A stretch of 64,000 nucleotides of DNA from the NCBI GenBank assembly GCA_046536595.1, contig JAWDMM010000003.1, positions 1,836-65,835 of the forward strand. The letters are read 5' to 3'. This DNA is from Nitrososphaeria archaeon. GTDB taxonomy: Archaea; Thermoproteota; Nitrososphaeria; Conexivisphaerales; UBA164. Below are positions 12,281 through 55,825 of the stretch, in pieces (the stretch's first letter is position 1; each line of letters opens with the position of its first letter). The notes below the pieces were generated by a model. It was not told the origin of the DNA and did no database searches. It saw only the letters and a program-made list of their open reading frames with translations. A program made the translations under genes and the position numbers.

Positions 12281-13252
12281 TCAAATTGAAGATGGGCTCA
12301 ACCAATTTTCTTTTATTTTTTCGTAAATTTCTTTTGAAACCTTTTCAAATTCATCTGGTTTAACTTTTTTACCAAGGTTTGCTCCCGAGGCGTATTCATG
12401 TCCTCCTCCTCCAAATATGTTCGCAAGCGGAACCAAGTTTATATTAGAATTTTTCTTTCTTCTGAAGCTCATGCCACCTTCATCTTTGACTATTATGTAG
12501 ACATCGGCATCGTTGTTCTCTATTATTTTATTGGCGGCCTGCGTACCTGAGATCAACGATGTTGCATAAGCTATCGCGAACCTGTAGCCATTTATGTTAA
12601 AAAATCTAACCGATTTCGCTGTGTACTCCAATTCTTCTCTTTTTTTATTCCTATAATATTCAAGCACATTCTTAAGGTCTTCAGTAACGACTTCTTTGGG
12701 CCCCTTTAAAGCGAGTTGAACAGCTAAAAAAGCCAGCCTGCACCTAGGCGGATCCTTTTCTAGGTAATTAAAATAATCTATGATATCGACCAAGTCCATT
12801 ACGTATTGATCTTTTATGTTCAGCGTGTCTGATTGAAATCCAGCATCAGCTATGAGTTTAGAAATTTCATCTTCAAGATCATAACGCTTTTGTACAAGTA
12901 CTGAAGCTGAACCCGCATCCTTTTCAACAAGCAAACCCACGTTTATGCCTTCTAATTTTTTTATTATTTCTTCTTTTGTTACGTGATGATCAGTCCATTC
13001 AACATTTCCATCAGTTTTCTTTATTCTTTCTATTATAAGATCTATCGAGTTTAAGTTGGTCGAGATATCAGCTATAAACACTTTAACTTCTTTAATGTTA
13101 GTAATATTTTCAGGATAAACCCTGTCATTGTCCTTATAATCCCTTAAATAAAGCAAATATGGCGTGTCCGAAGAAATTGACTTTCTTATTAGAAGTGCAG
13201 CTGAAGAAATTCCGTCAAGATCTGCGGAATGTGAAATTATAACATTGATCAT
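12281..13252 (-). CDS. DHH/DHHA1 family phosphoesterase
   Basis: HSADLDG, DHH, GGGHEYASG motifs. Confidence 0.9.
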   Translation of the reverse strand: MINVIISHSADLDGISSAALLIRKSISSDTPYLLYLRDYKDNDRVYPENITNIKEVKVFIADISTNLNSIDLIIERIKKTDGNVEWTDHHVTKEEIIKKLEGINVGLLVEKDAGSASVLVQKRYDLEDEISKLIADAGFQSDTLNIKDQYVMDLVDIIDYFNYLEKDPPRCRLAFLAVQLALKGPKEVVTEDLKNVLEYYRNKKREELEYTAKSVRFFNINGYRFAIAYATSLISGTQAANKIIENNDADVYIIVKDEGGMSFRRKKNSNINLVPLANIFGGGGHEYASGANLGKKVKPDEFEKVSKEIYEKIKENWLSPSSI

Positions 13253-13285
13253 TTCGATTCCCTATATTTATACAGTTTTAATCAT

Positions 13286-13427
13286 GTGAACTACCCTGCC
13301 CTCACTGGCAAGGCTTCCCGGTTCATCGAAACGCTTACGTGTGGAATGTTTGCATTCCACCGTCGCAGAGGCGTTTCATCCCTGGGCGTCTCGCCTGCAT
13401 TCCACAGGCAAAGCCCATTTGGGCATC
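13286..13427 (-). ncRNA. Putative TnpB omegaRNA scaffold (3' guide would continue into 13285-13266)
   Basis: Hairpins GCCTG/CAGGC, GAAACGC/GCGTTTC and GTGGAATG-CAAA-CATTCCAC. Ends at the right-end GTAGTTCAC. TATA-like TTTTATATAAA at ~13444-13454 lies upstream. Expression is inferred. Confidence 0.65.
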
Positions 13428-13523
13428 AATAATATAAAATTTCTTTATATAAAAACATTTCTGTAAGTGGCTATTCATCCCCTACCTCGCGGAAGGGGAC
13501 TTTCGCCCCTTAACCCCAAAAAG
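13286..13523 (-). mobile_element. Non-autonomous IS200/IS605 (IS1341-like) mini-element, copy E1; no ORF
   Basis: Minus strand reads TTTAA | CTTTTTGGGGTTAAGGGGCGAAAGTCCCCTT (hairpin with GAAA loop and bulged T) ... TCGATGAACCGGGAAGCCTTGCCAGTGAGGGCAGGGTAGTTCAC. Collinear homology with 55572-55825. Confidence 0.85.
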
Positions 13524-13623
13524 TTAAAAAATTATCTGAATAAATTATAAGCTCATAACACAGAAAATTCATCTGTGCTGATTATAAGTTTGATAGATTT
13601 GGATTAATGTTTTAATAATAAGA

Positions 13624-15627: not shown

Positions 15628-16728
15628 TTGAACTACCAGCCACGGGTTTCAGTGATCATACCAGTTTATAAAAACCCAATGAATCTTAGCGAAATTTTAA
15701 GAGCTATTTTTAACGACAGTTATAAAGAAAAAGAAGTCATAATCATAGCAGATGAACCGGATGATGATTTTTTTAGAACTGATTTTTTAGAGAGATGCAA
15801 GTTAATAGTCAACGAAAAAAGAATTGGAAAAGTTGAATCTCTTAACAAAGCTGTTAAAATAGCTAACGGGGATTACCTGATATTTTTGGATTCCGACGTA
15901 TTTATACCAGATGACCTTGTATCAAGGTCTGTTCAGGTTGCTCTAAATTCTAATGCGGACATAATAGATTATGTAAAGCTTGGTTACGGCAGCAAGCTTA
16001 TTGAGAGGATGGCATCAATAGACTACGCAATAGCAAGCGAGTTCCTCGAAATAGGCTCCAAGTTTTCTAGAAAGACCATAGCTCTGGATGGCGCTGCATT
16101 TATGATAAAAAAGGATAGCCTGATTAAGGTTGGTGGTTTTGATCACTTTTTTGCTGAAGATTTATATCTGGGTTTGAAAAGCTATAATCACGGGTTAAAG
16201 TATATAATTTCTGATATAGAAGTTCGCGTTAAGCAGCCTGATAACATAAAAAAATGGTTTGATCAGAGGATAAGATGGTCTTATGGATTATCAGAATGGA
16301 TTTTAAACAACCTTTTAAGGTTGATTTTTTATTTTATGAAGACGCCTTGGCTTTTTATCTCTTTTATTGTCTTTGTTGTCTCACCTTTAACTTCATTGGG
16401 CTTCTTTTATCTAATTTCAGCTCCTTTTGTTAACAATTTTATGATGCTTTATATGTTTAATCCGGTTATCAAATTTACGCCTTTGTTAGCAAGGTTTCCT
16501 ATGATTTATCTGGTTTATTTTACACGTTTTTTTGCGATATTTATGGGATCATTTGTTTTAACCATGATAGCTTACTCATTTATTTTAAAACATTACAAAA
16601 TTAAATACAGATTTTATGATCTGTTAGTTTATTATTTCCTTTATCAGCCATTGTTGTTCGCAACTTACATGCTTGGGTTTGCAATCTACGTTCTTAAAGT
16701 TAGGGTTGAACTTAATTGGAAAGTTTAA
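15628..16728 (+). CDS. Processive membrane glycosyltransferase family 2 (polysaccharide synthase-like)
   Basis: SVIIPVY, FLDSD, AEDL and QRIRW (QxxRW), followed by several TM helices. Confidence 0.9.
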   Translation: MNYQPRVSVIIPVYKNPMNLSEILRAIFNDSYKEKEVIIIADEPDDDFFRTDFLERCKLIVNEKRIGKVESLNKAVKIANGDYLIFLDSDVFIPDDLVSRSVQVALNSNADIIDYVKLGYGSKLIERMASIDYAIASEFLEIGSKFSRKTIALDGAAFMIKKDSLIKVGGFDHFFAEDLYLGLKSYNHGLKYIISDIEVRVKQPDNIKKWFDQRIRWSYGLSEWILNNLLRLIFYFMKTPWLFISFIVFVVSPLTSLGFFYLISAPFVNNFMMLYMFNPVIKFTPLLARFPMIYLVYFTRFFAIFMGSFVLTMIAYSFILKHYKIKYRFYDLLVYYFLYQPLLFATYMLGFAIYVLKVRVELNWKV

Positions 16729-25290: not shown

Positions 25291-25541
25291 CTTTATGGGG
25301 GTTAAGGGGGCGGAAGTCCCCTTTCTCAAGCTCTAAATAGTCCCTTATACAAATATTTTTAAACACTTTAGCACATTATCTTTAAAATACCGGTGTCCAA
25401 ACCTGAAAATAATGCAGGTATCGGAGAAAAATCTTTTTAGAAGGAAATTGCAGGAAGCCAGAACATATGAGTTGAAGATTTAAAAGAGCCAACGTGGCAT
25501 ATAAGCTGGAAGCCCTGGCTGCAAAGGTTGTGGTAGTTTAC
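25291..25541 (+). mobile_element. Diverged copy (E3) of the IS200/IS605 mini-element
   Basis: TTCAA | CTTTATGGGGGTTAAGGGGGCGGAAGTCCCCTT, then TAAATAGTCCCTTATACAAATATTTTTA (cf. E2 TAAATAGCCCCTATAGAAACGTTTTTA). Ends GGAAGCCCTGG...GGTAGTTTAC. Length similar to E1/E2. Confidence 0.65.
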
Positions 25542-50111: not shown

Positions 50112-50166
50112 CCGGTATTTTTATGCCAAGTTAGGAAGTCCCAGATTTTATGTTTAGGTAGTTCAC
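50112..50166 (+). repeat. Possible ~55 bp remnant of the IS605 mini-element family
   Basis: Follows TTCAA, contains GGAAGTCCC and ends GGTAGTTCAC. Confidence 0.4.
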
Positions 50167-54929: not shown

Positions 54930-55571
54930 ATGCAGGGACTTGACATAGCTCTTGATTTAATAGAAGAAAAACTTGTTGCTCTTAACAGGACACCGATAAT
55001 AGGCTTGGGAAGCGGGAGGACCGCATCAAGAGTTTTAAAAGAACTCGGGAAAAGGTTGAACAACAAGAATATAAGGCCTGTAGGCGTTCCTACTTCAGGT
55101 CAGATAAAGCTTGAGGTTCTTGATTATTATCTTATATCAGAACCAAACTTTAGCTTTCTCGACTTAGTAATCGACGGTGCAGACCAGGTGTCAAGCTATA
55201 ACGGATACATAATAAAAGGCGGTGGAGGGGCACTTACAAAGGAAAGGATAGTCTGGGAACTTTCTAAAGAAAGGCATGTTTTTGTATCACAAGATAAGGT
55301 AGTTGAAAAGCTAGTTTACCCTTTACCAGTTGAGTTTATTCCATTTTCTTACTTTCTGGTAAAAGACAGCCTGATAAGGCTAGGGCTTAAACCAAGTTTA
55401 AGGGTTGACTCACGGGGCTATCCTTTTATAACCGAAAACGGGAATTATATATTCGATGCTTCATATTCTGAAAACTCTGACCTCAAAAGCGCTTATGAAG
55501 AGATAATCAGGATACCTGGTGTTCTTGATGCTGGCCTGTTTATTTATGACATAAATCTTCATGTAATTTAA
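54930..55571 (+). CDS. rpiA: Ribose-5-phosphate isomerase A
   Basis: IGLGSGRT, IDGADQV, IKGGGGAL..E, ITENGNYI.D. Confidence 0.95.
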   Translation: MQGLDIALDLIEEKLVALNRTPIIGLGSGRTASRVLKELGKRLNNKNIRPVGVPTSGQIKLEVLDYYLISEPNFSFLDLVIDGADQVSSYNGYIIKGGGGALTKERIVWELSKERHVFVSQDKVVEKLVYPLPVEFIPFSYFLVKDSLIRLGLKPSLRVDSRGYPFITENGNYIFDASYSENSDLKSAYEEIIRIPGVLDAGLFIYDINLHVI

Positions 55572-55825
55572 CTGGCAGGCGAAGGGGGGGAAAGTCCCCT
55601 TGCACGAGGGGGAAATAAATAGCCCCTATAGAAACGTTTTTATTATGAGAAAATATTACATTATTGATGCCCAACCTAGAAAAGGAGAGGCTTTCCCTTT
55701 GGAGCATAGGGGAGACGCCAGGCTATGGAAAACGCCCCTGCGATGGTGGAATACTTGCAAAGTATTCCGCAGGTAAGCATATCGATGAACCGGGAAAACA
55801 AGCTCGTAAGGGCGGGGTAGTTCAC
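55572..55825 (+). mobile_element. Non-autonomous IS200/IS605 mini-element, copy E2, between rpiA and the next gene
   Basis: TTTAA (includes the rpiA stop) | CTGGCAGGCGAAGGGGGGGAAAGTCCCCTT ... TCGATGAACCGGGAAAACAAGCTCGTAAGGGCGGGGTAGTTCAC. Collinear with E1. Confidence 0.85.
55666..55825 (+). ncRNA. Putative TnpB omegaRNA scaffold (guide would continue into 55826-55845)
   Basis: Same hairpin order as E1 with changed but still pairing stems, e.g. GGAATACT-TGCAA-AGTATTCC. TATA-like TTTTATTA at ~55637-55645. Expression is inferred. Confidence 0.65.

Follow-up and report, generated by a model that had tools for sequence, protein, structure and literature searches.

A 238-bp transposon derivative with a predicted promoter and an omegaRNA-type scaffold upstream of a DHH phosphoesterase gene in a hot-spring thaumarchaeon

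The window (the whole 64,000-nt stretch of DNA that was analyzed) carries on its minus strand a 238-bp insertion, here termed E1. It is best explained as a PATE-like mini element composed of a promoter and an omegaRNA scaffold, and a probability of about 0.8 was assigned to this reading. E1 derives from a tnpB-only (IS1341-type) IS200/IS605 element by the deletion of nearly all of tnpB. The left end (a hairpin, a predicted BRE/TATA promoter and a leaderless start codon with the 5 nt that follow it) was fused in this way to the last ~131 nt, which in full-length copies encode the C-terminus of TnpB and, in the same stretch, the omegaRNA-type scaffold. The narrower statement on identity and anatomy, namely that E1 is a deletion derivative with a guide-RNA scaffold, is very probably correct.

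Results

Insertion site and boundaries

The features at the insertion site are as follows.

13286..13523, minus strand: E1, a 238-bp non-autonomous (PATE/MITE-like) derivative of a tnpB-only IS200/IS605 element, placed by comparison with G002, G005, G007 and G001
13524..13528, minus strand: target or transposon-adjacent motif (TAM) TTTAA, directly 5′ of E1
13493..13511, minus strand: left-end subterminal hairpin AAGGGG-CGAAAGT-CCCCTT, read from the sequence and kept in mini and full-length copies

Comparison with the orthologous site in the sister species G002 identified E1 as a single 238-bp insertion that spans exactly 13286-13523, the same limits that a preliminary description of the locus had given. 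The empty site of G002 reads TTTTTTTAA/ATGTTTAAAAC, with E1 absent between the halves (in summary form, TTTAA/ATGTTTAAAAC). The spacer between uppS and the DHH gene is ...AATTTTTTTAA/ATGTTTAAAACTGTATAAAG... in that species and ...AATTTTTTAA(CTTTTTGGGG...GTAGTTCAC)ATGATTAAAACTGTATAAAT... in the window, where the parentheses enclose E1. The site was also empty in G005, G007 and G001, which brings the relatives with an empty site to four. Because four species lack the insertion and many copies occur elsewhere, a deletion in the relatives is an unlikely reading of this difference.

No target-site duplication was found when the window (TTTAA, E1, ATG) was compared with the G002 empty site (TTTAA/ATG), and the ends of E1 are not inverted repeats of each other. 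Subterminal hairpins are located at both ends (left, 13493-13511; right, 13293-13314). Throughout the genome, almost every one of the 46 left-end starts has TTTAA directly before it. Insertion 3′ of a short motif without duplication and subterminal hairpins without inverted repeats are hallmarks of IS200/IS605 peel-and-paste transposition (PMC10055086, PMC3119063). At 238 bp, E1 is too short for a protein, and its ends are common to full-length tnpB elements.

Parent element, deletion junction and related copies

The genome (G000) is a 91% complete thaumarchaeal MAG of 1.54 Mb in 122 contigs. The E1 repeat family produced 45 BLAST matches in this 1.54-Mb genome; with the two halves of E1 as separate queries, 51 left-end and 34 right-end matches were obtained. 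In C63 and C77, the left and right ends are ~1.12 kb apart and bracket a TnpB ORF, whereas they are adjacent in seven mini copies. The full-length ORF was identified as TnpB by Pfam OrfB_IS605 and Cas12f1-like_TNB and by NCBIfam guided_TnpB (95.6 bits). C63 carries a nonsense codon and C77 a frameshift, so that both of the full-length copies assembled whole in this genome are broken; otherwise, intact copies came to light solely in RNA, in metagenomes or where a contig end leaves a fragment open. One such sequence, L087 from a JGI metagenome, has an intact 419-aa TnpB (P0008, 50 member sequences) and an identical TAM, left-end hairpin, TATA, GTGCCCAAC start and right end.

Three features of E1 were located relative to these elements.

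13419..13426, minus strand: relic tnpB start ATGCCCAA (GTGCCCAA in full-length copies), from alignment to C63, C77 and L087
13416..13419, minus strand: deletion junction that joins tnpB codons 1-3 to the last ~131 nt, from BLAST breakpoints at query positions 112/115
13291..13293, minus strand: TAG, the relic of the tnpB stop, 7 nt short of the right end; the full-length translation ends ...REALPVRAG(stop)

E1 retains the first 8 nt of tnpB (the start codon and 5 nt). At the junction, (A/G)TGCCCAA is joined to (AT)GGGCTTTGCCTGTGG, with tnpB codons 1-3 out of frame with the 3′ block. The tnpB stop of full-length copies is the TAG of GGGTAGTTCAC; its position so close to the right end means that the last ~131 nt are coding in those copies. 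The preliminary description had suggested that ATG CCC AA was the relic start of tnpB fused to its 3′ omegaRNA region, and full-length elements (C63, C77 and L087) do share both parts. Alignment to the full-length elements of the same genome mapped the junction as that description had anticipated, the stretch from the left end to (A/G)TGCCCAA and the 3′ block both being shared. At least seven copies have one junction in common (E1, C6:16875-17121, C72, C9, C45, C2 and C15), and the mini form itself therefore multiplied after the deletion.

The relic ATG also opens a 16-codon ORF (MPKWALPVECRRDAQG) at 13376-13426 on the minus strand. It lies in a leaderless context and overlaps the first two helices described below; nothing suggests selection on this ORF.

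A sister mini copy with a different junction is present in the window.

55572..55825, plus strand: E2, with its TAM at 55567-55571 and the junction CCCAACCTAGAAAAGGAGAGGC

E2 is ~75% identical to E1 and keeps 13 more nt of the 5′ end of tnpB. Comparison with the full-length sequence suggests that a deletion between short GAAG repeats gave rise to its junction. Another segment, E3 (~25291-25541, plus strand), has a family-type left end (BLAST match C3:27126) and the right-end motif GGTAGTTTAC at 25532-25541 around an unlike body; possibly it represents a further TnpB/omegaRNA family with a shared left end. Isolated decamers resembling the right end were also noted, i.e. GGTAGTTCAC at 50157-50166 (plus strand) and GGTAGTTCAA at 15628-15637 (minus strand). 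No recognizable right-end body was found upstream of GGTAGTTCAC at 50157-50166. These decamers may be minimal remnants or chance matches.

Predicted promoter of E1

13443..13462, minus strand: predicted archaeal promoter, BRE-like AGAAAT and TATA box TTTTTATATAAAG, kept in all family left ends
13428..13439, minus strand: second TATA-like stretch TTTTATATTATT, in the E1-type mini subfamily only

A strong promoter motif just under 20 nt upstream of GATGCCC had been proposed earlier. The motif is indeed there: TTTTATATAAA occupies 13454-13444 and GATGCCC 13427-13421 on the minus strand, with 16 nt between them, and the predicted geometry fits the mode of the genome. Mini and full-length copies alike preserve AGAAAT followed by TTTTTATATAAAG. 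In the upstream regions of 678 long ORFs of this genome, the starts of TATA-like hexamers peak between -35 and -26 relative to the ATG, a sign that most genes are leaderless; in E1, the TATA core TTTATATA begins at -27 relative to the relic ATG, and its geometry is thus that of a normal promoter of this genome. At the equivalent of the second TATA-like stretch (13428-13439), full-length copies have AAATATTACATTGTT or AACATCACATTAATA. From these motifs, we infer that the left end of E1 functions as a promoter. Transcription would start near 13424-13427, and the transcript would consist of a short leader, the omegaRNA scaffold and a guide from the flank (ATGATTAAAACTG...).

Core promoter of the DHH gene

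12281..13252, minus strand: DHH/DHHA1 phosphoesterase gene (Pfam DHH and DHHA1), co-oriented with E1 and downstream of it

The gene begins 33 nt downstream of E1, and the insertion point, 3′ of TTTAA, was placed 38 nt upstream of the DHH start codon. Orthologues of the gene are intact in seven members of the genus, and the G002 protein is 96% identical. In the relatives, TTCTTTAAAT is conserved at -38 to -41, and a TATA-like box occurs at -30 to -33. The TTTAAAT box at -38 to -41, conserved in four relatives, is split by E1. The -30 TATA-like box (ATTAAAAC here, TTTAAAAC in G002) follows 5 nt after the right end of E1; because this box survives, the DHH gene may have retained its own promoter as well.

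The preliminary description had named a different sequence, TATAAATA, as the TATA-like element of the DHH gene. This motif is present beyond the right end, in the flank at 13272-13265, and to that extent the description holds. It starts at -20 from the DHH ATG, outside the modal window of -35 to -26, and it was rejected as the TATA box on account of this spacing, which makes the role unlikely. The TTTAAAT box at -38 to -41 and the box at -30 are better candidates.

The placement of other family ends was examined in the same way. Of 24 right ends, 12 are followed within 120 nt by a co-oriented ORF of at least 100 aa, compared with 28% of random positions (about p = 0.02 against a crude null). 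Left ends were not enriched next to divergent ORFs (15 of 46, crude null). A divergent start codon lies 33-55 nt away from nine of the left ends, and a co-oriented one follows about nine of the right ends at a distance of 25-63 nt. Many family ends are 25-65 nt from start codons, and the elements are therefore often found in core promoters. The TAM TTTAA resembles the TATA boxes of this genome.

Structure and covariation of the scaffold

13286..13416, minus strand: omegaRNA-type scaffold, the relic 3′ end of tnpB, from fold and covariation
13412-13404/13398-13390, 13417-13413/13387-13383 and 13377-13371/13334-13328, minus strand: scaffold helices
13367-13364/13339-13336, 13360-13353/13348-13341, 13325-13321/13291-13287 and 13314-13307/13300-13293, minus strand: further scaffold helices

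The nested stems, right-end stem and terminal motif that had been described earlier are all present on the minus strand. GCCTG/CAGGC is found at 13409-13405 and 13397-13393, and GAAACGC/GCGTTTC (13377-13371 and 13334-13328) surrounds GTGGAATG-CAAA-CATTCCAC (13360-13341). The right-end stem is at 13314-13293, and GTAGTTCAC at 13294-13286 closes E1. The idea of a structured RNA body was borne out by folding: RNA 13427-13286 had a minimum free energy of -63.4 kcal/mol, compared with -44.6 ± 3.9 in dinucleotide shuffles (z = -4.84), and none of 200 shuffles was as good.

The alignment comprised 34 distinct copies, which were taken from this genome, three related ones, a Marsarchaeota MAG and other thaumarchaeal loci. 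The minimum-free-energy structure of E1 was projected onto this alignment, and the pairs were counted. On this structure, which was taken from one of the aligned sequences, and among copies that are related, 86.2% of the cells were paired, compared with 33-46% when the partners were slid by 1-3 columns. Both sides had changed in 17 of the 47 pairs, and doubly changed cells numbered 57 versus 24.7 ± 3.8 in shuffled data (reached in 0 of 500 shuffles); part of the pairing signal could reflect single-stranded DNA hairpins for the transposase, which the terminal hairpin also serves. The first hairpin occurs as GCCTG/CAGGC, CCCTG/CAGGG and CCCTA/TAGGG, and the terminal hairpin has many variants. 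Default RNAalifold gave only 14 pairs on the 34-copy alignment because indels in the loops disturb the alignment. A search of Rfam 15 returned no match at the gathering threshold and only noise at E ≤ 10.

A position at the 3′ end of tnpB, the size and covariation in several helices match what is expected of a TnpB omegaRNA (PMC10055086, PMC4615843). The block of E1 corresponds to the 3′ end of tnpB and ends at the right end of the transposon. It is thus expected to be an omegaRNA scaffold, as its structure and position would predict.

RNA at the locus

The RNA data consisted of seven metatranscriptomes (hot-spring, mat and lake) that contain the locus, in the form of undirected assembled contigs. 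Contigs that join the DHH gene to E1 were found in five of the seven runs (X14 to 13333, X16 to 13339, X22 to 13302, X24 to 13347 and X25 to 13319), in keeping with the earlier proposal of read-through toward the DHH gene. They cross the boundary between the right end of E1 and the flank and continue into DHH; each ends at the point at which the sequence becomes shared with other copies of the family. In those five runs, the depth over DHH was 6-14, versus 0-5 over the 3′ half of the upstream uppS. No RNA was found over the unique spacer 13534-13600 in any of the seven runs; one DNA run covers it. Because RNA bridges DHH and E1 and none covers the upstream DNA, E1 probably feeds transcription into the DHH gene. 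Unterminated transcription from E1 would run on in this direction, and a fairly good chance is given to E1-derived transcription reaching DHH. The mini copy C72, which is followed after 29 nt by a 548-aa ORF, served as a control and showed no RNA bridge to the downstream gene. No RNA contig containing the mini-specific junction (13411-13445) was found.

The scaffold region 13286..13416 is covered by RNA contigs at high depth. The last ~50 nt of the family right end reached a depth of 200-1600, compared with 4-16 for neighboring genes; this value sums ~35 copies. In X16, the last ~40-70 nt of the right end (e.g. L079:98-136 and L088:613-680) had a contig depth of 1200-1600, versus 4-14 for neighboring genes and ~100 in DNA, which suggests a stable RNA fragment with the terminal hairpin.

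In X16, two contigs that could stem from either E1 or C6a run into Illumina adapter sequence at 13410/13411, where the first helix has its base. Tentatively, a mature 5′ end could lie at this point, or the second TATA-like box could direct transcription to begin there. Little weight was placed on these ends because of this ambiguity and because a similar adapter-tagged end occurs in a loop of C72.

Guide segment, TnpB and mobility

13266..13285, minus strand: guide segment ATGATTAAAACTGTATAAAT, predicted from comparison with TnpB omegaRNAs; it is the flank immediately 3′ of the right end

The predicted 20-nt guide covers the core promoter of the DHH gene because the TAM resembles a TATA box. 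For 21 guides of the family, the whole genome was searched for TTTAA followed by 16 nt with at most three mismatches, and no second TTTAA-flanked match was found for any of them. This result fits selfish homing on the empty site rather than regulation in trans. TnpB supplied by full-length copies would bind E1 RNA in trans, and the guided protein would cut TTTAA-flanked empty sites, which would favor retention of the element. By analogy with characterized systems, the chances that E1 RNA is used as a guide by TnpB in trans are about even.

The family tnpB is transcribed, and in three runs the RNA contigs carry one extra base at the C77 frameshift (G000:C77:4560; L075:861). Transcribed copies without the frameshift imply that intact copies exist in the community. 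The genome contains 51 TnpB-like matches in at least four groups by length and sequence, which represent several families; about ten are intact 421-423-aa copies of another family. Many contigs end inside these repeats.

No Y1 transposase (PF01797) was matched in the 91%-complete assembly or in G002, G005, G007 and G025, which carry the family. Among the 40 relatives searched, PF01797 was present in the genus members G003 and G006 and absent wherever the family occurs. A Y1 tnpA may reside in unassembled DNA. The missing Y1 bears on any possible present mobility and not on origin.

In the parent TnpB, GIDLG and DRD are present, each with its Asp, as is CPVC...CPSC. Where RuvC-II normally has its Glu, all 24 aligned members of the clade carry an invariant Gln (motif FQDDD), with an invariant D/E at +2. 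These members derive from Thaumarchaeota, Methanoperedens, Thermoplasmata and Aquificae (e.g. G000:C63:1462-2721, L049:1426-2694 and L087:601-1860). Rearranged RuvC-II sites that probably remain active have been described (PMC10691335), and the clade is possibly one of the rearranged branches described there; with Gln at the Glu position, its nuclease activity is not assured.

A broader scheme can be drawn in which stand-alone guide-RNA minis propagate themselves as parasites of full-length TnpB, E1 acts as the promoter and leader of DHH, and binding or processing by TnpB couples DHH expression to transposon activity; taken as a whole, it is improbable. In a more extreme variant of this scheme, the Gln-for-Glu TnpB would bind DNA without cutting it. 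A TldR-like repressor does not fit the family, which is multi-copy, has transposon ends and yielded no TTTAA-flanked target in trans.

Alternative explanations

The alternative that best survives these data, although we regard it as unlikely, is that E1 has been exapted as the promoter and structured 5′ leader of the DHH gene, the native core promoter having been disrupted and guide function being irrelevant. The split TTTAAAT box and the replacement of the sequence just upstream of the -30 box would be accounted for, as would the occurrence of DHH-E1 RNA contigs in five of seven runs with none over the DNA upstream of E1, and the excess of right ends near co-oriented ORFs (12 of 24 versus 28% of random positions). 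However, the surviving -30 TATA-like box (ATTAAAAC) could itself drive DHH, and the lack of a bridge at C72 means that promoter donation is not general. The orientation enrichment is also weak (about p = 0.02, crude null), and the insertion, being species-specific, may be recent and tolerated.

Quite unlikely is the proposal that E1 is an inert relic, i.e. a decaying transposon remnant with leftover hairpins and tnpB coding sequence, the RNA being incidental read-through. It draws on the missing transposase in the assembly, the many truncated or decayed family copies (including some with broken stems, such as L060 and L065) and the fact that the depth of repeat contigs sums ~35 copies. Simple decay is at odds with the junction shared by seven copies, which shows that the mini form multiplied, and with compensatory pair changes in helices that are non-coding in the mini copies. 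E1-type copies have, moreover, kept the promoter region and gained a second TATA-like stretch, and the DHH-E1 RNA bridge is locus-specific.

A small protein gene, either the 16-codon ORF (MPKWALPVECRRDAQG) from the ATG at 13426 or a 47-aa ORF at 13335-13478, is highly improbable: the ATG does stand at a leaderless distance from the TATA box and the short ORF is kept in mini copies, but it is out of frame with tnpB, conservation of the peptide simply follows that of the DNA, GTG stands in place of the ATG in C45, the E2 junction differs, variation follows base-pairing and not codons (no synonymous bias was seen), and the 47-aa ORF starts upstream of the predicted promoter. A host structured RNA (riboswitch or sRNA) unrelated to transposons, as a strong fold in an intergenic position upstream of a gene might suggest, is refuted by the empty sites in four relatives and the identity with the tnpB 3′ end of full-length copies, and it matches no Rfam family.

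Discussion

The reading of E1 as a mini element with promoter and omegaRNA scaffold places it among several known systems. [quoted passage not shown] 2011, PMC3119063). Like E1, the haloarchaeal PATEs (HqIRS71 and the terminal-only ISHwa23; PMC3119063) are transposase-free core-deletion derivatives present in many copies. They share with it the lack of inverted terminal repeats and of target duplication, subterminal palindromes and a short 5′ target oligonucleotide. In contrast to them, E1 comes from a hot-spring thaumarchaeon and has a whole predicted promoter and start codon fused to a complete omegaRNA-sized block; the analysis of E1 also took in the empty site, covariation of the RNA structure and coverage by RNA contigs.

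PATEs frequently specify omegaRNAs, for which TnpB has to be supplied in trans (PMC10055086). The PATE-like, omegaRNA-only elements of Geobacillus stearothermophilus (Meers et al. 2023, PMC10055086) have no protein genes and depend on TnpB and TnpA in trans. In the TnpB homing model (PMC10055086), the guide is the right-end flank and the target is the TAM-flanked empty site, an arrangement that is predicted for E1 as well. The G. stearothermophilus elements are bacterial and were tested experimentally, whereas E1 has TTTAA as its TAM, a predicted BRE/TATA promoter, no TnpA in the assembly and a presumed function. The sotRNAs of Halobacterium salinarum (Gomes-Filho et al. 2015, PMC4615843) are non-coding RNAs that overlap the 3′ end of tnpB in the sense direction, as the E1 block does; they lie within full-length genes, while E1 has the equivalent region without the gene, behind the predicted promoter of the element.

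Use of the TAM TTTAA by an archaeal TnpB has been reported (doi 10.1101/2023.03.06.531077). This protein, SisTnpB1 of Sulfolobus islandicus (doi 10.1101/2023.03.06.531077), is a thermophilic archaeal TnpB with the TAM 5′-TTTAA found here; compared by description, it has the canonical RuvC-II Glu (E271), whereas the clade treated here has an invariant Gln with an acidic residue at +2. The nuclease-dead TldR proteins are RNA-guided repressors (Wiegand et al., PMC10705468), and action on promoters is conceivable in the present case, given a TATA-like TAM and guides that cover promoters. Unlike TldR systems, the E1 family is multi-copy with transposon ends, its guides match their own flank only, and nothing shows domestication.

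PATEs with an omegaRNA and TnpB in trans, and an archaeal TTTAA TAM, are thus already described. What E1 adds is a fusion of a predicted promoter to an omegaRNA-type scaffold that has spread as a lineage and landed in a core promoter, where RNA contigs point to transcription into the host gene. The family also has practical consequences for this genome. Its ~35 right-end and ~50 left-end fragments, together with the 51 TnpB-like matches, explain much of the fragmentation of the MAG, and such fragments should not be annotated as host sRNAs or riboswitches. E1 itself is a boundary-resolved archaeal transposon reduced to a predicted promoter and a guide-RNA scaffold, for which the empty site, the parent, covariation and coverage are all available. 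It favors the idea that TnpB, omegaRNA and transposase form separable modules supplied in trans, and it shows a TTTAA-targeting element that has landed in an archaeal core promoter and probably feeds transcription into the host gene.
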